Shown here piece by piece: positions 4,240 through 19,447 of a stretch of 25,573 bases of DNA (positions are counted from its first letter, which is position 1; the number at the start of each line of letters is the position of its first letter). The stretch is taken from assembly GCA_964423715.1 (NCBI GenBank), contig CAYRGB010000002.1, forward strand, positions 1-25,573, in the 5' to 3' direction. The notes beneath the pieces were generated by a model, which was not told the DNA's origin, did not search any database, and was given only the letters and a program-made list of their open reading frames with translations. Made by a program: the position numbers and the translations under genes. The stretch comes from an uncultured Methanosarcinales archaeon. Lineage in GTDB: Archaea > Halobacteriota > Methanosarcinia > Methanosarcinales > Methanosarcinaceae.

Positions 4240-4439
4240 TCGCCCATCACCATCATATTTCACTTCTGGAGTTCGTACAGGTTTCACATCTCGCCGTCAC
4301 TCGCTCACCACGGGCACTCTTAGTTGCTTTCTTTATTCTGCTAGAGCACGACTCTGGTTATAAGTCAGAATCTCCCATAACTCTTCGATTTTACGTGATA
4401 GCGAGACTGACGCGGGTTCATGAGGAGCAATTCTGGAGG

Positions 4440-4859
4440 TCATGCTGTAAGGTCTTTCAATATATGCAGAGCCACTGGCTGATAGTCCAGGTATCTTGCC
4501 CAAGTCCCCTCAACAAATGCCAGCCTCGCTGGCTCGTCGCGGCTGAACAGTACGTCTCCGCGTGTGACCTCATAGCAGAACCCTATGGGCGCACGGTTTA
4601 ACAGTTTTACATCGATCGGATATCGTACATCACGTTCCAGTTGGGATGATAGTCCCATCTCATATGCAAGGGGGTCCTCTGGCCAGAGTGCTTCAGTCAC
4701 ATAAACTCCCACATCAATGTCATGGAATCCTTGCTGATCCACAAAGCTCCCAAAAAGGTATGCAAATAGGATCTCTTCTCTTGATCGCACAAGTTCTTCC
4801 AGGGATGCGGCGACCTCCTGTCTTTTCACAGCATCAGCTTCAAATGTTCTCTCACGCAT
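4440..4859 (-). CDS. mntA: Minimal nucleotidyltransferase (MNT) antitoxin, MntA-like
   Basis: 139 aa, YLFGS...DIDVGV, DVKLLN motifs; start overlaps the hepT stop (ATGCGTGA). Confidence 0.88.
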   Translation of the reverse strand: MRERTFEADAVKRQEVAASLEELVRSREEILFAYLFGSFVDQQGFHDIDVGVYVTEALWPEDPLAYEMGLSSQLERDVRYPIDVKLLNRAPIGFCYEVTRGDVLFSRDEPARLAFVEGTWARYLDYQPVALHILKDLTA

Positions 4860-5280
4860 GCGTATCCAGGTACTCTGTGATCTCAGTTATATACTCTTCA
4901 AGGTCTTCAATGTCATGGCTGAGAATGTCATACACTTTCTCATCGTCAATTTCCCAGTAGATATGCACAAGCATGTTACGAAATCGTGCCATGTTCATTA
5001 GCCTCTCAGCAAGTTCGCCTGATATCACACCTGCATCATGCAGGAGCACGAAACAATCAGAATAACTCTCTGGGGCACGTCTTAGATGGCGTGCATTGAT
5101 GTGGTTACAAATGGAGATGGCTGCCTCGATCGCGGTGACCAGCCGATATCTGGCCGAATCGATGAGATTTGGATCGGCTAGGAACTCATTCCGTGAGCGC
5201 GAAACGTCCCTCTATCTCATCAGTGCCTGGTGGATCTCATCGATCTTTGTTCCGATCATAACCGGGTTGATGTGTGCCAT
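4852..5280 (-). pseudogene. hepT: HEPN (DUF86/HepT) RNase toxin, 142 codons, in-frame TAG at codon 23 (5212-5214); nonsense allele or pyrrolysine read-through
   Basis: Manual translation from ATG 5280 (GGAGG RBS): MAHINPVMIGTKIDEIHQALMR*RDVSRSRNEFLADPNLIDSARYRLVTAIEAAISICNHI...RFRNMLVHIY (RX4HXY)... One frame throughout; the ORF track shows only the last 65 aa. Confidence 0.85.
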
Positions 5281-5541
5281 GATTCTAGCCTCCACTTATA
5301 ATATCCAATGATTATAGAATTTCCTTACATAAGTAATACACTATTGGCCCTGTGGATGGGATGATGTAGGTATTCATGATCACGCTTCTGGAGCGCGTAA
5401 CGAGGTATCTTCCTCCGGTCGGTGTTCCTTCGAGAAAATACCTCATATCCTTCCCTTATGACATATGCGCCCATATAGATGAACGTAGTGTATGGTCACG
5501 ATTGGGTTTTCCGTTACTGTATGAGTTTAGTTGACAATGCC

Positions 5542-5557
5542 AAAAAGTGTTATATAG
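5542..5557 (+). promoter_or_regulatory. Putative BRE/TATA promoter of the cas operon
   Basis: aaaaagtg-ttatatag, about 30 nt upstream of the cas6 ATG at 5584. Confidence 0.55.
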
Positions 5558-5583
5558 TATCGAATTTTTATATTGTTACTGAA

Positions 5584-6372
5584 ATGATATCTACGGTTGT
5601 AAAGATCGAGATCTCTACGCAGGGGATGCTTGGAGATCGATTTATAGGAGGTATTTTTCGTGGCTGGTTGGGCTACGTGTTGAAATGCGATAGGAAACGT
5701 TCGTGTGCTGCATGTGATGAGAGTTCTAACTGTCCTTATTTTATGGTATTTAAAGAAAAGACCGGTGTACGCCCATATTCTACGTTGGCCTTTGTAGATA
5801 GGGACAGAGTATCTGGTTTCATACGTCTGTATGGGGATAAGAGGAGATTTGCACCGAAGATCCTGTCTGCTATAAAGATGAAGGAGAAAAAGACCCATTT
5901 TGGAGGTCTCAGATATACGATCGATTCCATCGAAGCGAAGAACCAGGATATTAAAACCGTTGAACTGGGCAGCAAGTTGAAAATTGTAACAACATCGCTG
6001 ATGCATCTCACGCGCAACAAGATATTTGAGGTTATTCCCACGTTCAATACGATATTGCGTTCATCCGTCCGGTCGTATAACAGGATCGCTAAGTATCATG
6101 ATGAGAAGAACTATCCATATCATGTGGACAATGAGATCATGAATGTCGATGCGGAGATTTTGGATTTTGACGTACATACAATTGACCATGTACACACAAC
6201 CATGAATCATAAAAGACTGATCCTTTCCGGCATTGACGGTTGGATCACATATGATACCAGTGATATGCCTGAAGAGGTCGGTAAGATCCTGGGAATGGGA
6301 GAGGCATTACAGATAGGTAAGCATACCGCCTATGGGTTTGGTGGATTTATTGCATTAAGTCAGGAGGAGTAA
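5584..6372 (+). CDS. cas6: CRISPR pre-crRNA processing endoribonuclease Cas6
   Basis: C-terminal G-rich loop GEALQIGKHTAYGFG; N-terminal Cys cluster CDRKRSCAACDESSNC. Start placed at ATG 5584 because the ORF-track extension runs through the promoter. Confidence 0.92.
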   Translation: MISTVVKIEISTQGMLGDRFIGGIFRGWLGYVLKCDRKRSCAACDESSNCPYFMVFKEKTGVRPYSTLAFVDRDRVSGFIRLYGDKRRFAPKILSAIKMKEKKTHFGGLRYTIDSIEAKNQDIKTVELGSKLKIVTTSLMHLTRNKIFEVIPTFNTILRSSVRSYNRIAKYHDEKNYPYHVDNEIMNVDAEILDFDVHTIDHVHTTMNHKRLILSGIDGWITYDTSDMPEEVGKILGMGEALQIGKHTAYGFGGFIALSQEE

Positions 6373-6374
6373 GA

Positions 6375-8636
6375 TTGAGTGGAAATATAGGGGTGGTAGA
6401 TTGGTTTACGAAGAGTATCAGGGATGAAGTCATATATCCTGACCAGAGTGATCGTCAGCTCAAAGTGCTTATAGAGGATATAATTCGTGTTTTTGACAGT
6501 TCATCAACGAGATTGAGCAAGATCGCCAACGAGTTATATGACACACTGGAGCATAACGAGTTGCTGAACAGTATTGCTTCAGATTCAAGGTTTCCCATTT
6601 GTTCCCTTTTCCATCATCTGAAGAATACATCCGGAATAGCGGTATGCCTGCTGATCCAGAAAATTGATATTGATCCGGGATATGGTAGTAAAAACCTGGG
6701 AAAGTATGGGATATCCTTAAAATATGAGGAAAAGGATCTGGTATCGTTGATCAGGATCGCTGCCTTATTGCATGATATCGGGAAACCCCGTTCATTTACC
6801 CAGACTAAGAAATACCAACCATATCACTATCATACAACACAGAGCAGGGAGATAATTGAGCATATATTGTCCAACACAACGTCTCCTCTCGTGGAAAAGT
6901 TTGAACTGGATAAGATATTGCCACTCCTTGCATCCAGGCATCACTCACGAGATGCGACCACACCCCTTGAAAACCTGTTGAGTCAGGCAGATACGGTGGC
7001 ATCTGCTGCAGATAGGGTGAACGAGATCAACAGTTTTCTGGATAACAATACACTCACCGTCAAGTGCAATGACCGAATATTCCCTCATGAGATCAACTTT
7101 GATGCCGGGGACATGAAATGCCAGGAAACACCACATACTGTGATACTCGGAAATGGAATTACAGAGATCAGGAATGTGGTACCGAAGGATGCCAATGCAA
7201 AATATGCTAGATTGTTCATTGACCATACATCACACGGAGGTCCTGTACATTATCTCGGAAACCCTGGGAAACTTCCCGGTAGTATCGGTATTCTGTCCAT
7301 GGACATGATGGGCATACAGGGATTCATTGGTGAAGCCGACAAACTTAAGATGCTGCGTGGTGGCAGTGCTATTGTGGATGATGCATTAAAATGTGCAAAG
7401 GACATCATATCCAGAGAGGTTTGCAGTGAAGCTGTCCTGTTCTGTGGAGGTGGAAATCTCCTTTCATTCATACCGAACACGGATCATTACAGATCAATAA
7501 TGAAAGAAATGATCAAGAAGAAGGTCCGCGAAGTGTCCAAGAACGGATTGCATGGAGCAGTTATAACATTCGAAGAAATGCTATCCGATGTCGCAGGTAA
7601 ATTCGATAGAACACTGGAACATTCTCAGGATAAACTTGATATTGAGAAGAACATTACTCGAGAGCGGCCAACGATACCGAATACAAAGGATGTGTGTGGG
7701 TATTGTTTCAAGAGACCGAAACCGTACAGCTCTGATATGTGTTCTGCATGTAAAGTAAAAAATGATCGGGGAGAACGTGGTAAGTCCAATATATTTATCC
7801 AAGATACTCATGGTGCCCAGCGGCCGAGTGAACTGGCACATCTGGGTGATTCCATTGCTGCTCTGGTCATTGATGGAAATATGATGGGAAGGATGTTCCA
7901 GCAGACAACTACCCCTGCTGAGTATACCTACAAAAGCCAGATATTTGAATCAAGGTTCAATGGCATTCTCAAAAGAACGATCGATGATTTCTGTAATGAA
8001 CCATCTAGCTTAGATCTGATACTACATCATCACAATGGTCAGGAATTCCTTGGGATCGATGTCCTCTATTCCGGTGGTGATGATGTCCTGATACTGATGA
8101 ATGCCAAAGGGGCGCTCCAGTTCACAGAGCAATTGGTGAACAATGTCGCAGAGGAATTTACCTTTAAGAGTAAGTTCCATGATGGTACAGTGTTTAAGAA
8201 CCCCGTCATCACAATCTCTGCAGGTATCGCAATTGCAAATAACAGGTTCCCTATATATTTCCTGCTCAATGCAGCACGTGAGATGGAATCAGATGCTAAG
8301 AAAGCCTTCAGGAATGATACAAAAACTGATGATTTTGATTTTATTAAATTACCAGAAGGAGCGATGTCGGTAACTGCTATAAGTTCTGCAATGCCGGGAA
8401 AGGACCATGTATCCTTTGTGATCAAACGTGATGCAGAGAGTAAACACGATCTCAAACAACTTAAGAAAATGATCAGCATTGCACTGGACAAAGAGAAGTC
8501 ACGTGCGCTGGTGTCCGATCTGATCACCTGTCCACCATCCGAACGTGAACGACTGGATCTCATAAAATATATGTATTCATCAATACAGCGCAAGAGCAGC
8601 GATATCGGTCTTGATGAATGTGAATGGATGGCATAA
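6375..8636 (+). CDS. cas10: Type III large subunit Cas10 (HD nuclease + Zn finger + Palm cyclase); probably shortened by 28 codons by a premature TAA (full length 6375..8720)
   Basis: SLFHH, LLHDIGK, RHH, ADTVAS HD motifs; Palm1 GGGN; CGYC..CSAC; DGNMMG; intact GGDD (8073-8084). The frame stays open after TAA 8634-8636 to TGA 8718-8720, which overlaps the next ATG. Confidence 0.93.
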   Translation: MSGNIGVVDWFTKSIRDEVIYPDQSDRQLKVLIEDIIRVFDSSSTRLSKIANELYDTLEHNELLNSIASDSRFPICSLFHHLKNTSGIAVCLLIQKIDIDPGYGSKNLGKYGISLKYEEKDLVSLIRIAALLHDIGKPRSFTQTKKYQPYHYHTTQSREIIEHILSNTTSPLVEKFELDKILPLLASRHHSRDATTPLENLLSQADTVASAADRVNEINSFLDNNTLTVKCNDRIFPHEINFDAGDMKCQETPHTVILGNGITEIRNVVPKDANAKYARLFIDHTSHGGPVHYLGNPGKLPGSIGILSMDMMGIQGFIGEADKLKMLRGGSAIVDDALKCAKDIISREVCSEAVLFCGGGNLLSFIPNTDHYRSIMKEMIKKKVREVSKNGLHGAVITFEEMLSDVAGKFDRTLEHSQDKLDIEKNITRERPTIPNTKDVCGYCFKRPKPYSSDMCSACKVKNDRGERGKSNIFIQDTHGAQRPSELAHLGDSIAALVIDGNMMGRMFQQTTTPAEYTYKSQIFESRFNGILKRTIDDFCNEPSSLDLILHHHNGQEFLGIDVLYSGGDDVLILMNAKGALQFTEQLVNNVAEEFTFKSKFHDGTVFKNPVITISAGIAIANNRFPIYFLLNAAREMESDAKKAFRNDTKTDDFDFIKLPEGAMSVTAISSAMPGKDHVSFVIKRDAESKHDLKQLKKMISIALDKEKSRALVSDLITCPPSERERLDLIKYMYSSIQRKSSDIGLDECEWMA

Positions 8637-8716
8637 GTCCTGCTGAATAAGAAACTGCTGACCGCATCTCGCATGATCATACCGCACCTATGGCATAATA
8701 GTGAGGAGGGGATGGT

Positions 8717-9370
8717 ATGAACATCTGGAGAATTACCCTTGTAGCAACCAGCGATTTCCACACGGCAGGTGACTCAAAGGGTTCGACTGTGGACTATCTG
8801 AGGGATGCCGGTGATGTACCGTATATTCCAGGAACCCATGTTAAGGGTGTGATGCGCAGTGAAGCGGAACGTATCCTGCGCAGTGTGGAGGATGTTAAAT
8901 GCTGGGTTACGGGTGATCCTGATCAGGAGAATGTGTCTGAAACGAACAAACGGAAGATCCTGACCTGTGAACAGATATCAGGTACCCGATGTGATGTATA
9001 CAGTATATTTGGGTCCATCAATGACGGGGATGGATATATCGAGGGCAAGATCCGGGTGACCGATTTTAATGCAGTCAGAAAAGTAGTATCTGCGTCCAGG
9101 ATGCACGTATCCATTGACAGGGATTACATGTCGAACAGGAGTGGAGGATTGTATCGTACACGAGTTGTGCCCCGTAACACCAGTTTCATGGGACATATTA
9201 TCACACGTGATCTGACAGAGAATGAAGAAAAACTGCTATGGGCCAGTCTTCATTCGATGTGCCACTATGGACTCGGTGGAGAGAGATCACGTGGTCTTGG
9301 AAGTTTTGATATTGGATCAATGGAACGGATTGATCATGGTGAGTTCCTGCAAGGAGGTATAGGACAATGA
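8717..9370 (+). CDS. csm3: Cas7-group RAMP (Csm3-like)
   Basis: PYIPGTHVKG, IFGS, SIDR, GLGGERSRGLG; Asp retained at the predicted catalytic position (STVDY). Confidence 0.85.
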   Translation: MNIWRITLVATSDFHTAGDSKGSTVDYLRDAGDVPYIPGTHVKGVMRSEAERILRSVEDVKCWVTGDPDQENVSETNKRKILTCEQISGTRCDVYSIFGSINDGDGYIEGKIRVTDFNAVRKVVSASRMHVSIDRDYMSNRSGGLYRTRVVPRNTSFMGHIITRDLTENEEKLLWASLHSMCHYGLGGERSRGLGSFDIGSMERIDHGEFLQGGIGQ

Positions 9371-10464
9371 TCGAACTTACAGGCACACTCACAGCGGTGT
9401 CTCCCCTGCATATTGGTATGGGTAAAAAGAGCGGAACGTTTGTAAAGACCCTTGAGCACATACCTGGCAGAACGATACGTGGAATGGTCGGGTATTACCT
9501 GTACACGAACAAGCGCGAACTGTTTGATAAACTCAGGATCAATGAAGATATGGATATGAGTGATACTGGGGTATACTTCAAAGATGCTCTTCCAAGGTTT
9601 GATGACCATAATACGATTGCGTCTCCCATATCATTGAGATGGTGTAAGAAATGCGAGTATCTGATGGAATATAATGCAAAAGAATGTCATAATATGACTG
9701 ATGGCAAAAAATGCTTGCATGAAGGAAAGAAGGTCACAGGTTTCATTACATTAAAATCAGTAAGTTCAGGCAAACTTGAAAAGGCGCGGGTAAATATGCA
9801 GATATCCACAAAATGCCCGATAACACGTGATGGTCATACGAGTCCGGGTTTAGATTATGAGAGTTCTCCCTATCATATAGAGGGTATCGTTCCAGGTACA
9901 AAATTCGGATTCAAATGCCTGGTTGAGGATGAATATGTGGATGATCTTAAAGAAGCACTGACCGAGGCAGGTGTGTTTGCGGGCCTTGGCGGTTATCGAT
10001 CACGCGGATATGGTACTGTGGCATTTACGGATATGACGGAAACACCCGTGGACGATGTGATCCAGAAGAGAAGCAGTGAGATATCTGATATCCGGAATGT
10101 GATGATGGTCGCGAATTCTCCCATGATACTCAAGAATGATACCCTATCGGTCATTGGATTTGGGGATCGGTTCGAGGAATATGCAGCAAAGGTATCTACA
10201 TCAGGAAACTTGAGTGTAACCTGCATAATTGAACAGGGGGAGAAGGAGGATCAGGTGAAACAGCGGCTTACAGAAGGAATTGCAAGAGGGTGGTCCATAA
10301 AGGACAGGAATAAAGTGTCTGAGATCATTCCATGTATTGGTCATGGGAGTTGTGTGATGATCAAGGGCGATCCAGAGGTCCTTGCAACCCTTGAGATGTA
10401 CGGTGTCGGGGAGATGACCAACAGTGGATATGGTGATGTGTATTTCATGGAGGGTCAAATATGA
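9367..10464 (+). CDS. csx10: Cas5-group double RAMP, Csx10-like
   Basis: SPLHIG, TLEHIPGRTIRG, two G-loops (GLGGYRSRGYG, GVGEMTNSGYG), CKKC Zn motif; position after cas10-cas7 as in III-D. Confidence 0.75.
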   Translation: MIELTGTLTAVSPLHIGMGKKSGTFVKTLEHIPGRTIRGMVGYYLYTNKRELFDKLRINEDMDMSDTGVYFKDALPRFDDHNTIASPISLRWCKKCEYLMEYNAKECHNMTDGKKCLHEGKKVTGFITLKSVSSGKLEKARVNMQISTKCPITRDGHTSPGLDYESSPYHIEGIVPGTKFGFKCLVEDEYVDDLKEALTEAGVFAGLGGYRSRGYGTVAFTDMTETPVDDVIQKRSSEISDIRNVMMVANSPMILKNDTLSVIGFGDRFEEYAAKVSTSGNLSVTCIIEQGEKEDQVKQRLTEGIARGWSIKDRNKVSEIIPCIGHGSCVMIKGDPEVLATLEMYGVGEMTNSGYGDVYFMEGQI

Positions 10465-10943
10465 ATGATCTGATGCGAATGAATCAGTATTCATGGGAAT
10501 TGGCAACCCTTGCAATATTGAAAAAAGGTAGGGATGTAGAGGCATATTCTACAGATCAGATCAGGAGGGTCATGTCAGCTGGGTCCTCTGATGATCTGAC
10601 AGATATCCGCAAGATCATTAATAACTATTCGCCCGCATCACCACAGGGTAAAAAGAAATGGCAGGCACAGAAAGAGATCGGTGCTAAACACGAGGCGAAC
10701 AAGGCATTTGGTGACAGATTACTTGAGATCATAGCAGGGTCTGATGTTGTGGATGTAAGTCGGTTTCTCCAATATACGTTATGGAATATTAAGATCATTG
10801 AAAAAAACAATGTTGATGTATTGTCACGAGAGCTTGACTGTGAAGGTGTAACTGATAAAGAAGTTCTGAATCAGCTAAAGCAGATATTGGAAGCTGACAA
10901 GGGTCCAAGGAAAAATTATGAAAGGGATAACAGGAGGAAATGA
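10461..10943 (+). CDS. Helical CRISPR-associated protein, probable small subunit (Cas11/Csm2-like)
   Basis: 160 aa, charged and helical-looking, DQIRRV resembles the Csm2/Cmr5 SQLR motif; ATGA-coupled within the effector operon. Confidence 0.55.
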   Translation: MNDLMRMNQYSWELATLAILKKGRDVEAYSTDQIRRVMSAGSSDDLTDIRKIINNYSPASPQGKKKWQAQKEIGAKHEANKAFGDRLLEIIAGSDVVDVSRFLQYTLWNIKIIEKNNVDVLSRELDCEGVTDKEVLNQLKQILEADKGPRKNYERDNRRK

Positions 10944-11464
10944 TTATGGCTGTTGAGTTTGATAAAGACGAGTTGGGTAAGATCGTATTGGATTCCTATG
11001 ATCTGATGTTGAGTATACCCTATCCAAATAAAAAAGGCGATAAGTATGAGATCCAGTCCAGAAGCAAGTTGAAGAACCTGCCTGAAGCATTGCGCGAATT
11101 TGAGGATCCTCGATCAGCAGTAGTACATTTCGTGAAGAGTGCCTCCTATTTCCTACCGCGTTCGGGCAATGATCTGAATGATTTTCTAAGTATGCTACTC
11201 ACAAAAGTCCGGAAGATACAGGACGAAGAATCAGATCTGGAGAAGGTACGAGAAAAAATACGGTACCTTATTGGATACAGTAACTGGGGTATGGATGCGG
11301 TTTGCAATATCTTCAGTAAGGCTGGCAGAGATGATAAGATACGTGATAGATTACAGAACATGGTACGTGCAGAACTTCTGATCGTTGGTGAAGATGGGTC
11401 TGTCGATAGGATCGTCAGTGATATTATGCACTGGAAAGCAAAGGCTGACAGCAGGAGGTATTGA
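10940..11464 (+). CDS. Second helical CRISPR-associated protein, possible additional Cas11-like subunit
   Basis: 174 aa, amphipathic helical pattern, no RAMP or Csx19-like signature that I can see; ATGA-coupled. Confidence 0.45.
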   Translation: MIMAVEFDKDELGKIVLDSYDLMLSIPYPNKKGDKYEIQSRSKLKNLPEALREFEDPRSAVVHFVKSASYFLPRSGNDLNDFLSMLLTKVRKIQDEESDLEKVREKIRYLIGYSNWGMDAVCNIFSKAGRDDKIRDRLQNMVRAELLIVGEDGSVDRIVSDIMHWKAKADSRRY

Positions 11465-12198
11465 ACATGTTCAGGGAACTTGAAAACCGGGCAATACTAC
11501 ATTACAGGATCGTTACTCGGTCAGACCTGCATATCGGTGGGCATACTACGATCGAACCTGCTGAGGTGGACAATTCGGTCATAAAGGATACAGACGGTTA
11601 TCCCATCATTCCGGGAAGCAGCCTGAAAGGCGTGCTCAGGATCGAAATGGAGCGACTCCTCAGGAGCTTGGGTCTGAAGATATGTGATGTTAATGCAGGT
11701 GCATGCAATGAATGTGCGGTCTGCTATCTGTTTGGTGGAAAGGACCTTGCATCCTCCATACGTATCAGGGATGCAGTTGCTAATCACAAACGTACACTGA
11801 TCAGGGATGGCGTGGCCATCGATCGTAAGGCTCGAAAAGCGCGAGACGGTGGAAAATATGACACAGAGGTTGTGCCAAAGGGTACGGAATTCACGGGTGT
11901 TGCGACGATAGAGAACACCACACTAAAAGAGGTATATGAGCAGGCTAAACTTGGCGGTCTCCTGAGTTTGATAGATTTCTTCAATGCCTGTTGTGGAACC
12001 ATAGGCCACGCTTCTTCCCGTGGATTTGGAGAGGTTGACATTGAGATCGAGCGTATCCAGTTGATCACGGCACAGGATTATCTGGATGGCAGGTACGAGG
12101 GAGAGGAGTATCTGAAAGGTGGGGATGAGTATGACGAACTGAAAAGCAATGCTATTGCAGATTGGTCAGGGTTCATAAAGAGTGATGGACATGCTTGA
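11461..12198 (+). CDS. csm3: Cas7-group RAMP (Csm3/Csx7-like backbone RNase)
   Basis: LHIGG, EVDN (catalytic Asp position), PIIPGSSLKG, C-x-x-C Zn site, LFGG, RDGVAIDR, GHASSRGFG. Confidence 0.88.
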   Translation: MNMFRELENRAILHYRIVTRSDLHIGGHTTIEPAEVDNSVIKDTDGYPIIPGSSLKGVLRIEMERLLRSLGLKICDVNAGACNECAVCYLFGGKDLASSIRIRDAVANHKRTLIRDGVAIDRKARKARDGGKYDTEVVPKGTEFTGVATIENTTLKEVYEQAKLGGLLSLIDFFNACCGTIGHASSRGFGEVDIEIERIQLITAQDYLDGRYEGEEYLKGGDEYDELKSNAIADWSGFIKSDGHA

Positions 12199-13543
12199 TT
12201 TTGATACTTTTGAGAATCGATGGGAGATCACGGCAAAGCTGACAATGGTCACTCCCCTTCGTATTGGGGGCGGGCAGAATGCAGGTGCTTATTCCATGTC
12301 ACAGAGTCCGGTGCTACTGTCTTACGATGCCCAGACACAGACCGCTGAACCGTATATTCCCGGCAGCAGCCTTAAAGGTGTGTTGCGAAGTACGGTGGAG
12401 CGTATCGTGAGAACGATCGACGAGAATGAGTCATGTATTGCTGTGGGGAAGCGTGACAAGGTGCTATGTGGAGATTGTGTGTCCTGTTCCATCTTTGGTT
12501 CACAGAAAAAGGGTGCCAGTATCAGGGTTCAGGATGCTCATCTATCAACAGAGATAGGGTCCGGAGGAGTATTGGATGAACGGCCACATTGTGCAACGAT
12601 CTATGACAAGAAGGGAGATGAATATGTCATGCGGATGCGAACACAGGGTAGGGGTGGCAGATCGTTTGAGGTTCCTAAGACTATCCTGCGTATGGAAGAG
12701 GTCGTGGCTGCCAATACATCATTTGATCTTAACATTAATCTCGACAATGCGGATGAACATGAAGTAGGACTTGTGTTACTTGCCCTGAACGAGTTCAATC
12801 ATAAACGTTCCTGTCTGGGAGGCGGTACTTCCCGCGGGAATGGATTTGCGGATATGAACCATGTTCGAGTAACCAGAAAAAGGGTTGTTCCGGATGAAGA
12901 TAGGTTGTTCAAAGTGGAATCGGAACAGATGGATCCTTATATGTTCTGTGATTCGGCGAGAGATTATCTAAGGGATATGGACAATGGACAGGATGTTACC
13001 CGGCGGGATTTCGATGTATATTACCGGGCATATTCATCAGAGCGTCAGGAAGGTCATCTTGTGATACAGTATGAGGTCGAGACCCTTAATGATTTCCAGA
13101 TGCCCGGGGCGGATGGGGCTACTGTCACCAATTATGGTGTGCCAGTGATCCCTGGATCTACGATCAAGGGATTTCTGCGCCATAGCCTGATCGAGGCTGG
13201 CAGGGAAGCGAAGTTCATCGATGAAATGTTCGGATCGGTGAACGGTCAGGCTCAACACCGATCCCGCCTGCTGATATCAGATGCTTTTTCTGATACGGGA
13301 TTTTCAGGGCATGACATGATCCCGGCGGGCACGATATTGACTATGTGGGCGGTGTTTGACAATGTTGATAAGGATGAGCTGGGAGCGATCAATGAGATAC
13401 TGAAAAAACCATCCTGCAGGATTACGGGGAAGAAAACCGCAAATACGGACAAGAGAGGTCAGTCCTCCCGCAACACGGTTAGTTTCCGGGCGAAAGATCT
13501 GAGCAAGTTCGAAGTGTCCAAATACCTCAATGACCAAATATGA
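12191..13543 (+). CDS. Cas7-Cas7 fusion RAMP (Csm5-like distal subunit)
   Basis: Two RAMP starts: PLRIGG..PYIPGSSLKG..IFGS..LGGGTSRGNG, then PVIPGSTIKG..MFGS..RLLISDA. First domain lacks the catalytic Asp and second lacks a G-loop. Start could be 12182, 12185 or 12191. Confidence 0.75.
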   Translation: MLDFDTFENRWEITAKLTMVTPLRIGGGQNAGAYSMSQSPVLLSYDAQTQTAEPYIPGSSLKGVLRSTVERIVRTIDENESCIAVGKRDKVLCGDCVSCSIFGSQKKGASIRVQDAHLSTEIGSGGVLDERPHCATIYDKKGDEYVMRMRTQGRGGRSFEVPKTILRMEEVVAANTSFDLNINLDNADEHEVGLVLLALNEFNHKRSCLGGGTSRGNGFADMNHVRVTRKRVVPDEDRLFKVESEQMDPYMFCDSARDYLRDMDNGQDVTRRDFDVYYRAYSSERQEGHLVIQYEVETLNDFQMPGADGATVTNYGVPVIPGSTIKGFLRHSLIEAGREAKFIDEMFGSVNGQAQHRSRLLISDAFSDTGFSGHDMIPAGTILTMWAVFDNVDKDELGAINEILKKPSCRITGKKTANTDKRGQSSRNTVSFRAKDLSKFEVSKYLNDQI

Positions 13544-14046
13544 GGTATTGGATAGCATTTATTGGATCAAGTCCATTTGCAGTGATCAATACTATTTGGG
13601 CAGCGTGCAGGGAAGCTGGGTATGTTCCTGACCACGCTGTGTTCATGATCAATAGGGAACTTAACGAAGAATGGATAGATATTGTAAGACATTGGGTTCC
13701 CCGGATACTCGAAGAGTATGGGGTCGAAGATCCATTACTCTCAACACATATGGTCGAGGAAACCGGATTCCAGATGATCTGTGAGGAGTATCGGGCACAT
13801 TTGTTTGATCTTAAGGCGAATGATGAAGTTGCAGTGGACATCACACCCGGTAGAAAGTATATGTCTGCTATTGCTATGGAAATGGGATTGTCCATGAATG
13901 CGGATCACGTGTATTACCTACATCTGACGGATAATCGATACCATAATATTCCATATCCTATTGTCCCATTGCATCGACACGAATTGATCGATATGAAGAA
14001 GGAGTTCTGTAAAGTAGGAACGAATAGGGCGGTGCTGGATGAATGA
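13540..14046 (+). CDS. Stand-alone CARF-domain protein (cOA sensor or ring nuclease)
   Basis: 168 aa; N-terminal strand-GSS (IAFIGSSPFAVINT) and VDITPGRK CARF motif II; no fused effector domain. Confidence 0.75.
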   Translation: MRYWIAFIGSSPFAVINTIWAACREAGYVPDHAVFMINRELNEEWIDIVRHWVPRILEEYGVEDPLLSTHMVEETGFQMICEEYRAHLFDLKANDEVAVDITPGRKYMSAIAMEMGLSMNADHVYYLHLTDNRYHNIPYPIVPLHRHELIDMKKEFCKVGTNRAVLDE

Positions 14047-15083
14047 TCGTACCAAAGGACTATTTTGTGGCGTTGCTCAATGAACTGTCCCGGAATTCGG
14101 ATCAGGTTGTTGTGAAGTATCCTCCAATAGGCACGATCTTTACCATTAAGATGGATGAAACGTGTGCCTTGTATCCTATGCCAAAAGAGGAGTTCAAGCA
14201 CCTGAGAAAGAACCTGCTTGATCCTTGGCATAATGATAAGTTCATTTCAGATGAGATCCCTACGGATATGGATCTGGTGACCTGTCTTTATGCATCTTCG
14301 ATACTGCGGTCTGAAGAAGAATCATCTCTTAAGGATAAGTTGCAGGAAGGATGCCAGCGTAATTTGTTGAAAGGGGACAAGCCACTTTTCGTTGGTTATG
14401 ATACCAATTCTCTACGGCATAGAAGTAATCGTGTAGTTGCGAACATTCTGTCAGAACTACCACGGGATTCTGCAGCGAACATGGGATTTTGCCTGAACGA
14501 GAGCGTTAAGACTGAATTGAGGTACAGGTGGAATCATAAATATAAAATGCCGGATGTAAACACACTCGGCAAGGTTCACCGGCAAGCCCGTACATTTTTA
14601 AATCAGCATCCGAAGGATGCACGTATGGCTCGTCTGGGTGCTGTGGAGTATAAGCATATCATGACACAACCAAATTGTGTGGAGATCAACGGCAGGGGAT
14701 ATGGTGATAACAAGATCGTCCGATCATTTGAGTCATTTCGGGATAAACGCAATGTGGACATCCTTTTGATCAGTGGGGACAATGATTTTACTGCAATGGC
14801 CCATGAGGAGAAAATGAATGCGTTGTATATGAAGCAGCCAACAAATTATAGTACGGAACTTGAGGCTTCATGGGAGCAGGTCGTTGAGTTGCTTTATTGT
14901 GTTGCAGTGGTTTTTGGTCATGTGTTTATTAATGACATCGATGTGTTTGGGATATGGACCGGCAAAGTGGAAGATGACTGGGATGGATACAGGGTATCCA
15001 TTGATCCTTCTAACAGGGATCTGAAAGGAGATATGTTCAGGGATATCAGGATACTTGAGAAGGGTGTACATGATACGGTGTGA
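14043..15083 (+). CDS. PIN-domain nuclease with N- and C-terminal extra regions
   Basis: 346 aa; PIN acidic tetrad pattern VGYDTNSL, NESVKTEL, GDNKIV, LISGDNDF; ATGA overlap with the CARF gene. Confidence 0.72.
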   Translation: MIVPKDYFVALLNELSRNSDQVVVKYPPIGTIFTIKMDETCALYPMPKEEFKHLRKNLLDPWHNDKFISDEIPTDMDLVTCLYASSILRSEEESSLKDKLQEGCQRNLLKGDKPLFVGYDTNSLRHRSNRVVANILSELPRDSAANMGFCLNESVKTELRYRWNHKYKMPDVNTLGKVHRQARTFLNQHPKDARMARLGAVEYKHIMTQPNCVEINGRGYGDNKIVRSFESFRDKRNVDILLISGDNDFTAMAHEEKMNALYMKQPTNYSTELEASWEQVVELLYCVAVVFGHVFINDIDVFGIWTGKVEDDWDGYRVSIDPSNRDLKGDMFRDIRILEKGVHDTV

Positions 15084-15140
15084 TCAATGGGTTGGAGGGT
15101 CATGGATATTACAATTTCTTCTTTAGATGGGTGATCGTGA

Positions 15141-16610
15141 ATGGTAAATGTTCTAAAAGAGATCAAAACGAGAGTGGATGCATCGGATCGTCAGTTCGTA
15201 CTGGAGGCAGTGGAGCGGTTCGAAAAAACATCTGACAGGGATGAACTTCTAACTATATCCTCAGAGATGTTCTCCTATGAAAAAAAATATGTTTCTACTT
15301 ATCAGGGTAATTGTGATGTTCTGATCAGTACGGTAGGGATGCGTGAAGCTCCGATCATCCTATCTCATCTTGCGATCAGGCCCAAAAGGAGTATATTGTT
15401 GCATACGGTTGGTTCAGAGGGTATTGCTGAGAAGGTCATGGAGGATTCGGATATAAAGGATATTGGGATCGAGTTCACGCCGGTGCAGATCGATGAAGTG
15501 GATGCTGCTTACAATTATAACTGACTTAAGGAAGAGGTGCTGCCAAGAATCGGTAATCGCCAGAATGTACGGACGGATCCGACGGGGGGCAGGAAGATCA
15601 TGGGTACAGCTGTGGGTTCCTTTGCATTCCTTTTCAGGATACCAATGGTCTATCTGCATGCAGAGGAGAAAATGGGGATCAGCGTTCCATTTAGCGGGAA
15701 GATCAGAGATATTGAAAATCCATATGAGTATTATGGCGATATGGATATGCAGATATTGAAGAAGAACTTTGACAGTGGATTTTTCGATCCTGCACATGAC
15801 GTCTGTGAACAATTGCAGAAGAATGTCAGGGATCTTGCACTGGGCAAGAAACTAGATATGCTTCAGGACCTGATAAAGATATATTGTGATTGGGATGGCT
15901 TTTTGCATAGCAGTTTTGCTCAGAATGCAAAGGGACGAAAAGAGGAGTCATATCTCGCACAGAGGCTTGAGGCGGTATATGAAGAATGTACCAGATATGG
16001 TATTATTCTTGTAAAGGAAGAAGAACTAAAACAGAATATTGAGTTCCTTAAAGAAATTGATAAGCACTGGAAATCGGGCTCCAATATTGTGGACCGATTT
16101 CGTCTAGTGGACCTTTTCCTAAACGCAGAACGTCGGGCAATCCAGGGTAAATATGATGATGCAACTGCTCGGTTATATCGTTGTATTGAGATGTGTGCTG
16201 TTCTTTTGATGGAAAAGGAAGGTATTTTCGATATTAAAAATCCTGATTATGAAGATTTTGCAGCAAAGCATAATATGGATAAAGATGACTTGTTTTCCAA
16301 GTTCAAAGATCTGTCTACTTTTGACAGTCCGAGAACTCCACCAGGTTTGAATGATATAATGTTAATGCTGCAGGTTGTTAATATTCCAGCTGCACATATG
16401 TATGCTCGAATGAACAGGACAGATGAGGAGGAGGAAAGTCTGCGGGATAAAAGGAATCGTTCCCTGCTTGCTCATGGTACAAGTCCGATTACAGCAGATG
16501 ATTACAAAGTTCTTCTTTCAGGGACGAAGAAAATTATTGGTAGTACTCTGGGTAAAAAAGAATTCAAACAGCTTGCCAATCAGGCCAGTTTCCCCACTTT
16601 AATGATCTGA
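15141..16610 (+). pseudogene. CARF-HEPN cOA-activated RNase (TIGR02710/Csm6-Csx1-like), 489 codons, broken by in-frame TGA at codon 128 (15522-15524)
   Basis: ORFs 15141..15524 and 15537..16610 share one frame: ...STVGMREAP...DAAYNYN*LKEEVLPRIGNRQNVRTDPTGGRKIM...RNRSLLAHG (HEPN R..H). Confidence 0.85.
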
Positions 16611-16611
16611 T

Positions 16612-17622
16612 ATGAGGTCTGCAACCCCGCAAACTCTCCATATCAGTGGTTATGGAAAGAAATTGAAAAAACGCAATAATCTACTGGTTGTGGAGTGGAA
16701 TGTTGATGGTGAGAAGAAGTCGTTATCCTTCACACCGTCCACTCTTGAGCATGTGATCATTTCGGGCGAGCATTCGGTCAGTACCGGTGCTATGAGGCTT
16801 TTTTTCGAGGAAAACGTAAGTTTTTCATGTCTGGATAAGTCTGGTTATCCATTAGGTTTTCTTTTTCCCCACCGCAGATGCATGCATGTGGATGTGTGGG
16901 AAAAACAGCTTATGATGAATGAAGTGGATGCTCTGCGTATTGCAAAGACGATATGTATAGCTGCTGCAAAGAACAAGATGTCGTTGTTGAGGTCGCTGCA
17001 AAGGAGTAGGGATATCGATCTTGAAGTATTTATCAAGAATGTGAACGATGTAATAAAAAACATGCATGATGCTGATGATACATCCAGTTTAATGGGCTAT
17101 GAAGGTAATTCGTCAAGGATATATTTCGATGCTTATCGGAAAATGATACCTGCGGAGTTTGGTTTCGAAAATCGGGTCAGACATCCTTCTCCAGACCCTG
17201 TGAACGTGATGCTCAACTATGGTTATGGTATCCTGTATTCAAAGGTCCGTATGGGTCTAATACAGGTGAATCTGAACCCCTATCGTGGAGTTCTGCATGC
17301 ATCATACAGGGATCAGGAAGCTCTCGTCTATGATCTCATCGAGGAGTTCAGGCAGCCAGTTGTGGACAAGACCGTCCTGACGTTGATCGGCAGGAAACAG
17401 GTTTCTCCAGGATCATTTTCAATTGAAGGTGAGATGTGTATGATGGATGATCATTTTAAGAAGGAATTTGCAGATCATATACTCACACGTCTGGAGAGCA
17501 AGACGAAATATGATGATAGCACTGAATCGTTTCAGGTTATCATTGATCTTCAGGCAAGAAGACTCAGGGATGCTATCATGAATTGTGAGGATTATGCACC
17601 TTTTGTCTATAGAGGACGGTGA
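16612..17622 (+). CDS. cas1: CRISPR integrase Cas1
   Basis: GYEGNSSRIYF, DPVNVMLNYGYGILY, GVLH, LVYDLIEEFR; no RT or Cas4 fusion. Confidence 0.96.
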   Translation: MRSATPQTLHISGYGKKLKKRNNLLVVEWNVDGEKKSLSFTPSTLEHVIISGEHSVSTGAMRLFFEENVSFSCLDKSGYPLGFLFPHRRCMHVDVWEKQLMMNEVDALRIAKTICIAAAKNKMSLLRSLQRSRDIDLEVFIKNVNDVIKNMHDADDTSSLMGYEGNSSRIYFDAYRKMIPAEFGFENRVRHPSPDPVNVMLNYGYGILYSKVRMGLIQVNLNPYRGVLHASYRDQEALVYDLIEEFRQPVVDKTVLTLIGRKQVSPGSFSIEGEMCMMDDHFKKEFADHILTRLESKTKYDDSTESFQVIIDLQARRLRDAIMNCEDYAPFVYRGR

Positions 17623-17909
17623 GCATTACCACATCGAAATACCTGATAGTTGCTTATGATATAGAGAAGAACCGAACAAGAACAAAGATCTCAGAACTTC
17701 TCCTGTATTATGGCCTGATACGAATACAATATAGTGTATTTGCCGGTGAGGTACAATCATCCAAGATGGACAAACTCTCATCTGCCTTATTTAGTATCTC
17801 AATTGCCGATGACGACAAAATAATCATGTTCCCAATCTGTGAGAACTGCCGTAACAATATCAATACGACAGATGAGTTACCCAAAAAGCTAAAGCACCTA
17901 TCCATATAA
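17619..17909 (+). CDS. cas2: CRISPR-associated Cas2
   Basis: IVAYDI, RIQYSVFAG, ICENC; GTGA overlap with cas1. Confidence 0.95.
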   Translation: MSITTSKYLIVAYDIEKNRTRTKISELLLYYGLIRIQYSVFAGEVQSSKMDKLSSALFSISIADDDKIIMFPICENCRNNINTTDELPKKLKHLSI

Positions 17910-18229
17910 TCCTTCCACAACTTCCTAAATTACCATACCTTTTTAAGGGGTATTGCTAAAGGGGGGTCTGTCACTTATTTGTAGCACATAAACAATCTAT
18001 TATACACAGGCATGTACAATTCACTCATACAAACATTCACTAATATATATCAATGATGGCGCAGTATGATGGTTCACAAATTGCATTAATCTTCAAATCA
18101 CTCCGTCTTTTGATGGCGGTTTACCAGATCTTTATAATGGGTTTTAGCAAAAATAGGTCTGCACAAACACCCCTAAAATCGGAGCATTCTCAAACGCTCA
18201 AAACTGATTTAAAGGATAAAATATATAGT
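17910..18229 (+). promoter_or_regulatory. CRISPR leader
   Basis: 320-bp AT-rich non-coding stretch between cas2 and the first repeat; fixes array orientation as +. Confidence 0.75.
17929..17951 (-). repeat. Degenerate partial CRISPR repeat in antisense orientation
   Basis: Minus strand ACCCCTTAAAAAGGTATGGTAAT vs repeat 3' part ACCCGCGAAAATAGGGTATGGTAAC; 10-nt exact GGTATGGTAA plus ACCC and AAAA. Confidence 0.55.
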
Positions 18230-18629
18230 GTTGAATGTAGAACCCGCGAAAATAGGGTATGGTAACAGTTTTGTTCTGGCTTCCTCCACAAATCCAGATT
18301 CGTTGAATGTAGAACCCGCGAAAATAGGGTATGGTAACTGTGTGTTTTCACGCGATCCAGTAACCCATCTGGCAGTTGAATGTAGAACCCGCGAAAATAG
18401 GGTATGGTAACAGCTTGAATAAATATAAACCATAGAAAAACATTAGTTGAATGTAGAACCCGCGAAAATAGGGTATGGTAACGCTCCTGCGAACACCTGA
18501 GACGCATGGGGGGTTAGTTGAATGTAGAACCCGCGAAAATAGGGTATGGTAACCCATTATTCCACCCGCCTGAATTTGTCGCCAATTTTTGTTGAATGTA
18601 GAACCCGCGAAAATAGGGTATGGTAACCT

Positions 18630-18761
18630 GAGTTCCACGCAAAAGTAGATGCAGGAAAAATGTCAGCAAACTATGCTACATTGAACGATCATCATGAGGC
18701 ATGGAGTCGGGTCGTAAAGGATATACCATATCTGCGATATATTAGAACTGAGGTGAAGTGA
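18630..18761 (+). pseudogene. 3' fragment (43 codons) of a foreign gene cut off at repeat 6
   Basis: EFHAKVDAGKMSANYATLNDHHEAWSRVVKDIPYLRYIRTEVK*. The frame is closed upstream by TAA inside the repeat, and its end carries the GAGGTGA RBS of the next gene. Confidence 0.55.
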
Positions 18762-18762
18762 T

Positions 18763-19020
18763 ATGGGTGCAATCGCCAAAAAATTAACCGGTGATGAAAA
18801 GGAATATGTGCTTGATGGGGAAGAATGGCTCCGTTCAACGATGTATAACCTTACGTGTATGAGATGCAAGCATTATCATCCATATACGGATCCTGAAACC
18901 GTCAATACCTGCAACGCATACCCAGACGGGATACCCCTCGAAATTTTAGAAGATAAAGTGGATCACCACAAACCATACAAAGGAGATCACGGCATCCAGT
19001 TCGAACCTCGCGATGTTTGA
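18763..19020 (+). CDS. 85-aa Cys/His protein of probable viral origin embedded in the CRISPR array
   Basis: ATG with GAGGTGA RBS (18750-18756); CMRCKH...CNAYPDGIPLEI...DHHKPYKGDHGIQFEP. From memory this resembles small prophage proteins next to head-morphogenesis (MuF) genes; unverified. Confidence 0.8.
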   Translation: MGAIAKKLTGDEKEYVLDGEEWLRSTMYNLTCMRCKHYHPYTDPETVNTCNAYPDGIPLEILEDKVDHHKPYKGDHGIQFEPRDV

Positions 19021-19061
19021 ACCTAAGGACGAGTGATTTCTTTTCTTATTATATTGTGGCT

Positions 19062-19113
19062 TTGTGTATTAAGTATGACTTGTGTAAAAAGTCGTAATTT
19101 TGTGTAGAAAGTC
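19062..19113 (+). repeat. Three imperfect 14-bp direct repeats, consensus TTGTGTANNAAGTM
   Basis: TTGTGTATTAAGTA (19062), TTGTGTAAAAAGTC (19080), TTGTGTAGAAAGTC (19100). Confidence 0.6.
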
Positions 19114-19202
19114 AAAGCAAAAAAACCAATACGTTGAATGTAGAACCCGCGAAAATAGGGTATGGCAACTTTGAAAAAGAGATTAAAGATCTCTAAAAGT
19201 CC

Positions 19203-19238
19203 GTCTGTCTTAGATAGTACAAGAAGTATGTATAGAAC
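19203..19238 (+). repeat. Possible highly degenerate terminal CRISPR repeat
   Basis: 33 bp after repeat 7; aligns at 19/37 positions with one gap (GT...TAGA...GTAT.G-AAC). Confidence 0.25.
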
Positions 19239-19335
19239 AAAAAAGGACAGCGGCCGCAAATTTAAGGACCACTCATAATCAAAATAATAGAAGTAATGAA
19301 TACGTTGTATATTTTTTTGCACGAGGCATATTCCA

Positions 19336-19447
19336 GTCCGCTTGAGCGCTAGCGAGACGGACCGCGCCCTCCCGAGGCGCGACTCGGGGGCCTGGGACTC
19401 GGGCACTTTGGCGCTACATACAAATACCATTGGATAGAACCTATTCA
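19336..19447 (+). other. GC-rich structured element, probable 5' UTR of the aksE/leuD operon
   Basis: Stems GTCCG/CGGAC, CGCGCC/GGCGCG, CCCGAG/CTCGGG and TGGATAG/CTATTCA; TATA-like ttgtatat at 19305-19312. Confidence 0.4.

Follow-up and report, generated by a model that had tools for sequence, protein, structure and literature searches.

A viral pseudo-spacer in an archaeal type III CRISPR array carries the 3' end of a MuF minor head gene and the intact gene of its putative small partner protein

The stretch of DNA analysed here (the window, 25,573 nt) is contig C2 (CAYRGB010000002.1) of a metagenome-assembled genome (MAG) of an uncultured archaeon of the Methanosarcinales (GCA_964423715.1), an assembly of 1.41 Mb in 262 contigs that is 78% complete. 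Among its products are AglB, a type III effector module (several RAMPs and a Cas10 that bears HD and palm domains), Cas6, Cas1 and Cas2, followed by a CRISPR array whose sixth slot holds an oversized insert with two reading frames, and it is this insert that is described here (Table 1). Perfect copies of a 37-nt repeat begin at 18230, 18302, 18375, 18446, 18517 and 18591, and a copy with one mismatch begins at 19133 (n=7; none expected by chance), the first five spacers measuring 35, 36, 34, 34 and 37 nt. The sixth slot likewise has repeats on both sides, with which its two borders coincide exactly, but its 505 nt lie outside the 34-37 nt range and it is not a canonical spacer; its GC content is 40%, against 47% for the genome.

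The first of the two frames opens at the border of repeat 6, the codon before it being a stop inside that repeat, and runs for 44 codons, rather than the 43 amino acids first reported, to a TGA at 18759-18761 (C-terminal end ...HHEAWSRV...LRYIRTEVK). The ATG of the second frame (18763) follows one nucleotide after this stop, and its product (P0001), at 85 residues, falls within the limit of <150 aa used for the small open reading frames (ORFs) that follow MuF genes (Jamet et al., 2017; PMC5576092). The protein carries CxxC..C..YPDGIP..DHHKPYKGDHGIQFEP, together with a tail reading ..LDGEEW..MY.., the residues C32, C35, C50 and H68, and a KPYKGDHGIQF stretch. The tight coupling of a truncated ORF to a small CxxC protein, which the original prediction had pointed out, is borne out by the frames, by the Shine-Dalgarno-like sequence ahead of the second and by the layout of the array. 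The pseudo-spacer is made up of ~390 bp of viral head-morphogenesis DNA and ~110 bp with a dispersed host-lineage repeat element, and it belongs with two known kinds of feature, the pseudo-spacer and the MuF effector/partner cassette.

Table 1. Features of the window discussed in the text, with positions counted from its first nucleotide.
Feature	Position	Strand	Description
CRISPR-Cas island	4243..19333	+	~15.1 kb: HEPN/MNT-like genes, type III cas10/RAMP operon, cas6, cas1, cas2, array and insert
cas1	16612-17622	+	from the ORF list
cas2	17619-17909	+	from the ORF list
AT-rich leader, 320 bp	17910-18229	+	inferred: adjoins cas2, degenerate repeat at the opposite end
Regular part of the array	18230..18627	+	six perfect 37-nt repeats, five spacers of 34-37 nt
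Truncated MuF 3' end	18627..18761	+	44 codons and stop; post-catalytic C-terminal helices of the RadC/JAB-like domain (predicted)
Pseudo-spacer, 505 bp, sixth slot	18628..19132	+	between repeats 6 and 7
Shine-Dalgarno-like GAGGTGA	18750..18756	+	6 nt before the small-gene ATG; putatively functional
Small gene (P0001), 85 aa, intact	18763..19020	+	phrog_33375; acidic N-terminal tail and Cys3-His domain
Insert tail, 112 bp, AT-rich, non-coding	19021..19132		next viral gene of the relatives missing
Three-box element	19058..19118	+	GGCTTTG, three TTGTGTAnnAAGT boxes (19062, 19080, 19100), CAAAGC
Repeat 7, final recognisable repeat	19133..19169	+	single mismatch, T to C at repeat position 34

The 44 codons correspond to the extreme C-terminus of the MuF/SPP1-gp7 minor head protein of Methanosarcina-type tailed viruses and proviruses. 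Of the 739 pieces from a six-frame translation of the window, this frame alone was matched by a MuF C-terminal domain profile from which the fragment had been left out (E 4.5e-8, over positions 215-256 of the 258 in the profile), and phmmer aligned the fragment to the C-terminal ends of the proteins of loci L007 (residues 227-265 of 270), L009 (441-477 of 482), L012 and L040. In a multiple alignment it pairs end to end with the last 44-45 residues of MuF proteins, including P0156 from L009 and P0162 from a Methanosarcina acetivorans provirus, and it retains the invariant Trp and Tyr of the MuF C-terminus. The full-length relatives contain Phage_Mu_F (PF04233) at scores of 31.1 (L009), 48.8 (L012) and 72.1 bits (L040), the cut-off being 29.6, and 27 relatives were found when the C-terminal half of the L009 protein served as query (those in the range P0156-P0176 included), nearly all of them PF04233-positive, two examples being a Methanosarcina sp. 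'minor capsid protein' and a 'phage head morphogenesis protein' from M. acetivorans. The PF04233 core had no match anywhere in the assembly; the window retains the last 44 codons only, followed by the same neighbour gene as in L007, L009, the M. acetivorans locus (L089) and Flavobacterium phage lotta8-2. Judged by these similarities, the donor of the ~390-bp piece is a Methanosarcina-type tailed archaeal virus.

In the relatives, the C-terminal 165 residues of MuF fold confidently (predicted local distance difference test, pLDDT, >90 at model residues 88-253). The top Foldseek matches of this model in the PDB are RadC (2qlc, probability 0.98) and the Pyrococcus JAMM1 protein PfJAMM1 (5lda, 0.96), with CSN5 and Rpn11 homologues also found, and in Swiss-Prot all of the top 30 matches are RadC/UPF0758 proteins. 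Residues E334, H373 and H375 (within HNHP), S382 and D385 are invariant or nearly so in the full-length viral relatives, which display both the fold and the E...HxH...S..D motif of the RadC clade of JAB/MPN domains. On account of the fold matches and this conserved JAB metal-binding signature, the MuF C-terminal domain of the closest relatives is predicted to be a RadC/JAB-like metalloenzyme; a PDB sequence-profile search with the domain gave no meaningful match. PBECR, the 'MuF-C' domain of phage Mu (PMC5512222), was considered as its identity and rejected, model and motif both indicating JAB/RadC. The fragment in the window comprises the helices that come after the catalytic core, and the metal-binding motif and the core are absent from the captured piece. 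The proposal that the host had captured the tail of a viral toxin therefore stands in so far as the fragment is the C-terminal end of MuF, as phmmer and the profile indicate, but the domain to which it belongs is not a recognised toxin. Enzymatic domains fused to MuF are regarded as cargo that is delivered into the host with the DNA, and RadC domains have been suggested to process nucleic acids (Iyer et al., 2017; PMC5512222). The loci described here share with that account a MuF domain serving as virion anchor for enzymatic fusions and a RadC-type JAB domain in mobile elements; they differ from it in that the MuF protein of archaeal tailed viruses bears a RadC/JAB-like domain, and in the putative dedicated small partner of MuF, which Iyer et al. 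do not describe.

The small protein matches phrog_33375 (E 1.3e-11), to which PHROGs assigns no function, and searches of Pfam and NCBIfam with it returned no family. In an exhaustive profile search, cluster representatives numbered 7,829 at E<=1e-3 and 2,109 at E<=1e-10, and most of the nearest Atlas clusters are viral. The residues that are invariant among 104 family members are three Cys, a His, an Asp and a Pro, all of which P0001 keeps (C32, C35, C50, P58, H68, D75). Its structural model is confident at residues 30-85 and mostly coil. Structure searches returned only the family's own uncharacterised members, the PDB adding weak matches to high-potential iron-sulfur proteins (HiPIPs; Foldseek E ~1); a wide VIA-align search with the model found no chain at Z >=2, and a PDB sequence-profile search with the family gave no meaningful match. 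Like HiPIPs, the protein is small and mostly coil, and its C-x2-C-x14-C-x17-H spacing resembles the HiPIP pattern of Cys ligands; a HiPIP is also its top, though weak, Foldseek match in the PDB, and one family member has a weak match to Pfam HIPIP. Its fourth ligand, however, is a His, so that three invariant Cys and one His stand against the four Cys of HiPIPs, and with the fold similarity being weak as well the protein does not group with them. From its conserved residues the small protein is a putative metal-binding domain. This Cys3-His domain frequently occurs in tandem (often two copies, up to four), occasionally at the C-terminus of a MuF protein (P0035: MuF at 149-246, the domain at 550-604) and also at the N-terminus of proteins of 350-800 aa; these arrangements are represented by P0008-P0020, P0035, L038 7494-8597 and L026 6052-8463. 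The stretch at 18961-19007, which encodes KPYKGDHGIQFE, is conserved with distant viruses at the nucleotide level (L060, L010, L031, L089 and others), having 31 of 32 bases in common with L060 and exact 20-mers in common with L046 and L049; this may reflect codon constraint only.

Across 71 loci from IMG/VR, a large gene ends at or overlaps the start of the small gene in nearly all cases. The 57 non-redundant upstream proteins include 29 with Phage_Mu_F, 12 with ADPrib_exo_Tox, 4 with ART, 3 with ATLF and 1 with Zeta toxin; the ADP-ribosyltransferase domain lies at their extreme C-terminus where tested, and their C-terminal 150 residues fall into 18 unrelated clusters. The order is the same in Flavobacterium phage lotta8-2, in which gp027 (annotated PF06074) is followed by the MuF-type gp028, the homologue gp029 and gp030 (annotated PF05069), and in a provirus-like module of M. 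acetivorans C2A, which runs from an MCM gene and a large terminase gene through genes of 410 and 55 aa to MuF (468 aa) and a 70-aa gene, with an HK97-type capsid gene further on. The 70-aa gene overlaps the stop codon of MuF, and its product is 48% identical to the 85-aa protein of the window. At this locus (L089 9912-12602; provirus at ~4.696-4.713 Mb of AE010299.1) two genes on the reverse strand, including a DDE transposase gene, break up the head module just behind the small gene, and the provirus is therefore probably defective. At L041 (3518-5929), an 804-aa MuF protein has an intein (Intein_splicing, Hint_2) between the MuF domain and an ADP-ribosyltransferase-like end.

The statement that small proteins of this kind follow MuF or minor head genes in prophages is therefore correct, and it agrees with a survey of temperate phages in which 89% of MuF toxin genes had a small ORF (<150 aa) immediately behind them (Jamet et al., 2017; PMC5576092). 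Here too a MuF gene with a variable C-terminal enzymatic domain is followed by a small ORF, and some of the relatives' upstream MuF proteins end in ADP-ribosyltransferase domains. Our case differs from those cassettes in that one Cys3-His family accompanies many C-terminal types, the N-terminal tail alone varying, in that the hosts are archaeal, and in that the 'toxin' part in the window is cut to 44 residues. The homologues are mostly viral and linked to MuF, some of them to toxin domains, as the original prediction had anticipated; its further expectation was a C-terminal toxin on MuF followed by an immunity gene. An ADPrib_exo_Tox domain does close some of the upstream proteins, and in the closest relatives the domain is RadC/JAB-like and not a recognised toxin.

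The contact between the small protein and MuF was modelled by complex prediction for the L009 pair (the full-length MuF protein and its own small protein, with our own alignments), in three runs and beside three controls. The pair reached an ipSAE of 0.80, against 0.00 for the best of the three controls; this mark is attained by 58 of 80 solved complexes and by 2 of 110 mismatched pairs, counts that hold only roughly here because our own alignments were used. The three runs share at least 93% of their contacts, with a partner pLDDT of at least 88. In the predicted interface, partner residues 2-19 lie against MuF E334, H373, H375, S382-D385 and residues 434-459, with partner Asp6 at the metal site and Ile13 and Tyr14 on the last MuF helices; according to this model, 10 of the 32 listed MuF contact residues fall in the stretch that the window retains. 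The tail of the partner also varies with the type of MuF protein. Next to JAB-type MuF (n=13), the tail before the first Cys is 16-20 residues long and acidic (I/L-D-D-x-E..., DDxE-type), with an aromatic residue four positions before the Cys; next to ADP-ribosyltransferase-type MuF, the tails bear other motifs; next to the largest cluster, they are just 4-10 residues long. P0001 has the JAB-type tail.

The predicted position of the N-terminal tail in the JAB active site, together with the variation of the tail with the MuF C-terminal type, makes it plausible that the small protein and MuF-JAB are a cognate pair of effector and partner. In the virus, the small Cys3-His protein would thus be the cognate partner of the RadC/JAB-like domain of MuF, with its acidic N-terminal tail predicted to occupy the JAB active site and to contact the last MuF helices. 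Until MuF is packaged or ejected, it would serve either as a chaperone or as a plug, in the manner of an inhibitor or immunity-like factor. A plug, chaperone or substrate relation is the best current reading of the predicted contact. One conserved family accompanies at least 18 unrelated C-terminal types, and it is therefore not a classic family of one toxin and one immunity protein, an identity that was also rejected in view of the members that are almost tailless. That the small protein is instead a substrate of the JAB domain, its N-terminal tail being trimmed for maturation, or a generic factor of head assembly or DNA packaging irrespective of the C-terminal domain of MuF, we consider rather unlikely. 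Such a role would suit a Cys3-His core that is conserved across bacterial and archaeal viruses while the MuF C-termini are unrelated, the many family members with almost no N-terminal tail, and a domain that is sometimes fused to MuF (P0035) and often in tandem, and substrates likewise bind the JAB groove as a peptide. The tail motif, however, varies with the MuF C-terminal type, the predicted contact has at its centre an acidic side chain next to the Zn ligands, as in plug-type inhibitors, and the small protein offers an N-terminal tail, whereas characterised JAB enzymes act on C-terminal tails (PMC5512222).

The insert is collinear with its viral relatives at 18628-19020. The insert lacks the 75-aa gene that comes after the small gene in L007 and L009, and a dispersed element of the host lineage is found instead at 19058-19118. 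As viral homology ends at 19020, the insert does not represent a single collinear piece of virus, unless the element was already present in the donor. Its TTGTGTAnnAAGT boxes are 18-20 bp apart, and there are no others in the window. Related three-box copies are present on contigs C15 (6380-6470 and 7610-7700) and C217 (~90-158) and at L091, L092, L093 and L094, and occur in three other genera of the order; copies elsewhere consist of GGCTTTG, then three or four TGTGTAWAAAGT boxes ~20 bp apart and sometimes an inverted closing box. Two copies flank an Mrr-like gene (C15), two bound a 6.5-kb transposase block (genome G006) and one adjoins the gene for the specificity (S) subunit of a type I restriction-modification system (genome G027). 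With copies standing beside inserted cassettes, the insert tail resembles a dispersed cassette-associated element, which may be a recombination site or an operator. A second CRISPR leader was considered for the element and rejected, since boxes of this kind are missing from the true leader and the element is found far from any array.

The viral piece begins 44 codons short of the MuF gene's end and takes in the whole of the gene behind it. It probably entered the array either by faulty, over-long spacer integration or by recombination between an older MuF-targeting spacer and an infecting virus. Recombination between spacers and protospacers, involving phages and CRISPR loci, was reportedly described in 2019 by Varble et al. 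in Nat Microbiol for a staphylococcal type III-A system, in connection with transduction. Recombination of this sort would explain the exact repeat-spacer border, with viral DNA continuing from a former spacer; the window differs in that the insert shows no duplicate of the putative spacer at its opposite end, and in that there is no sister strain carrying the ancestral spacer. Among archaea, the ~2-kb, five-ORF, plasmid-derived pseudo-spacer SiL-E1 in CRISPR_2 of Sulfolobus islandicus LAL14/1 has been put down to faulty protospacer processing or to recombination with a pre-existing matching spacer (Jaubert et al., 2013; PMC3718332). Like SiL-E1, the insert described here is gene-bearing foreign DNA placed exactly between two repeats of an archaeal array, and the same two routes are candidates; SiL-E1 is collinear with its donor up to both repeats and is followed by more spacer-repeat units, whereas our insert is 505 bp long, viral, sits in the last slot, and is non-collinear with its relatives over its final 112 bp. 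The viral genes lie in the sense of the array, so that CRISPR RNA (crRNA) made from the first bases of the insert would have the polarity of the mRNA and be unable to base-pair with the transcript of MuF. Given the transcription direction inferred for the array, the insert is probably of no use for type III guidance.

Two other accounts of how the fragment came to lie between repeats have to be weighed. It is improbable that the capture went through a solitary repeat or mini-array that the virus bore beside an AT-rich region downstream of its small gene, with a second crossover at a MuF-matching spacer, in which case repeat 7 and the 112-bp tail would be viral too. Both borders lying exactly at repeats, the one-base difference of repeat 7, and a tail unlike the next gene of related viruses would all fit such an event, and solitary repeats and mini-arrays have been documented in viruses (PMC10651486, PMC6858448), but neither the 71 viral loci nor the M. 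acetivorans provirus contained a repeat-like sequence (<=10 mismatches), and the three-box element occurs in chromosomal contexts in several host genera. An assembly artefact, in which the contig would have been mis-joined through the 37-nt repeat and the fragment misplaced, we hold to be highly improbable. CRISPR repeats are classic mis-join points and a MAG of 262 contigs would offer the occasion; against this, the fragment touches the identical repeat on both sides, and no further copy of that repeat was found in the 1.41-Mb assembly outside the array. Even a mis-join would therefore need a molecule in which the fragment is bracketed by the repeat, and the flanks run into cas2 on one side and, on the other, into leuD, where synteny with relatives is kept.

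In the host, the enzyme core is missing and the small gene is most likely carried along as an inert passenger. Neither a further copy of the small gene nor a MuF gene was found elsewhere in the assembly, and no homologous captured copy was found in 40 related genomes. The suggestion that the host had 'kept' the gene as a store of protein-level immunity is unsupported, the gene being present as a single copy in one MAG with no second instance. We consider it quite improbable that the gene has been domesticated for protein immunity, the pre-crRNA doubling as mRNA, Cas6 cuts in repeats 6 and 7 freeing a 542-nt RNA for translation, and the 85-aa protein neutralising incoming MuF-JAB or disturbing head assembly. 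An intact ORF with its invariant residues and a strong Shine-Dalgarno sequence, located downstream of the leader on what appears to be the transcribed strand, would be in keeping with domestication, as would the retained JAB-type tail (an acidic residue stands 12 positions ahead of the first Cys, and Y28 corresponds in the alignment to Y14 of the partner that was modelled) and the view that MuF-fused domains enter the host with the DNA (PMC5512222). Its single occurrence argues against such a use, however, and so does the trimming of crRNAs from the 3' end by type III complexes, which would destroy the message once it is loaded; pseudo-spacers with arbitrary gene content are, moreover, known (PMC3718332). 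Very improbable is the reading of the array as an expression site, in which the Cas6-cut pre-crRNA would serve as mRNA and the 85-aa protein would plug a virus-delivered RadC/JAB effector on MuF; if true, it would amount to heritable protein-level immunity inside an adaptive-immunity locus.

Taken together, we regard it as fairly probable that the insert is a viral pseudo-spacer whose small gene encodes a cognate partner of MuF in the virus and is an inert passenger in the host. Several points tell against this reading. The source genome is a MAG that is 78% complete, the Foldseek E-values for the JAB fold are modest (7e-3 to 1e-3), the complex score is a model confidence on the L009 pair and not on the window's own protein, and the co-variation of tail and domain is uncorrected for shared ancestry. 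The non-collinear 112-bp tail is unlike the product of a simple over-long integration, and the intact small ORF, with all family-invariant residues kept and a perfect 7-nt Shine-Dalgarno sequence, fits recent capture but also selection.

The insert provides a clean archaeal type III case for the rare class of gene-carrying pseudo-spacers, with exact repeat borders and an identified donor lineage, and it informs how Cas1-Cas2 or recombination may load over-long DNA into an array. The main value of this work is that a very large viral family without a name (phrog_33375; 7,829 cluster representatives), whose gene follows MuF genes from Flavobacterium phages to Methanosarcina proviruses, is given its first testable function. 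The function proposed is that of a modular partner, whose Cys3-His core is conserved and whose N-terminal tail varies and, by the prediction, occupies the MuF enzyme's active site. If true, this would explain how phages bear toxic or enzymatic MuF cargo without damage to their own assembly, and would put a name on the 'immunity' ORFs of Jamet et al. (2017; PMC5576092).

The remaining spacers and the surroundings of the array were analysed as well. The cores of spacers 1, 2, 4 and 5 had no exact match in IMG/VR, none of the spacers had a significant match in the viral loci fetched, and an exact search with the 37-nt repeat gave zero matches in metagenome_contigs and genome_contigs. Queries for sequencing runs with 18400-19400 and with 18628-19132 likewise returned none. 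A decayed eighth repeat after repeat 7 was looked for and rejected, the best ungapped match being 16/37, a score reached by ~1% of window positions. A solitary sequence with 5 mismatches to the repeat of the window is found in a same-genus genome (L088 815-851; G002:C64), with no second copy within the 1.8 kb inspected.

The CRISPR-Cas genes lie on an island placed between aglB and leuD, with the HEPN/MNT-like genes at its left end. In the same-genus genomes G001 and G002, aglB (window <=4242) is found within ~70 bp of the match to window 19334 onward; 4243-19333 is therefore an island missing from both genomes, and it is horizontally acquired. An Rfam scan of the whole window returned no family. 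Directly upstream of leuD, a GC-rich element of ~70 bp (19334-19404), which likewise has no Rfam family, marks the right edge of the island; it recurs at many places in the genome, contigs C183, C209 and C120 among them, and copies of 80-96% identity are found in many related genomes.

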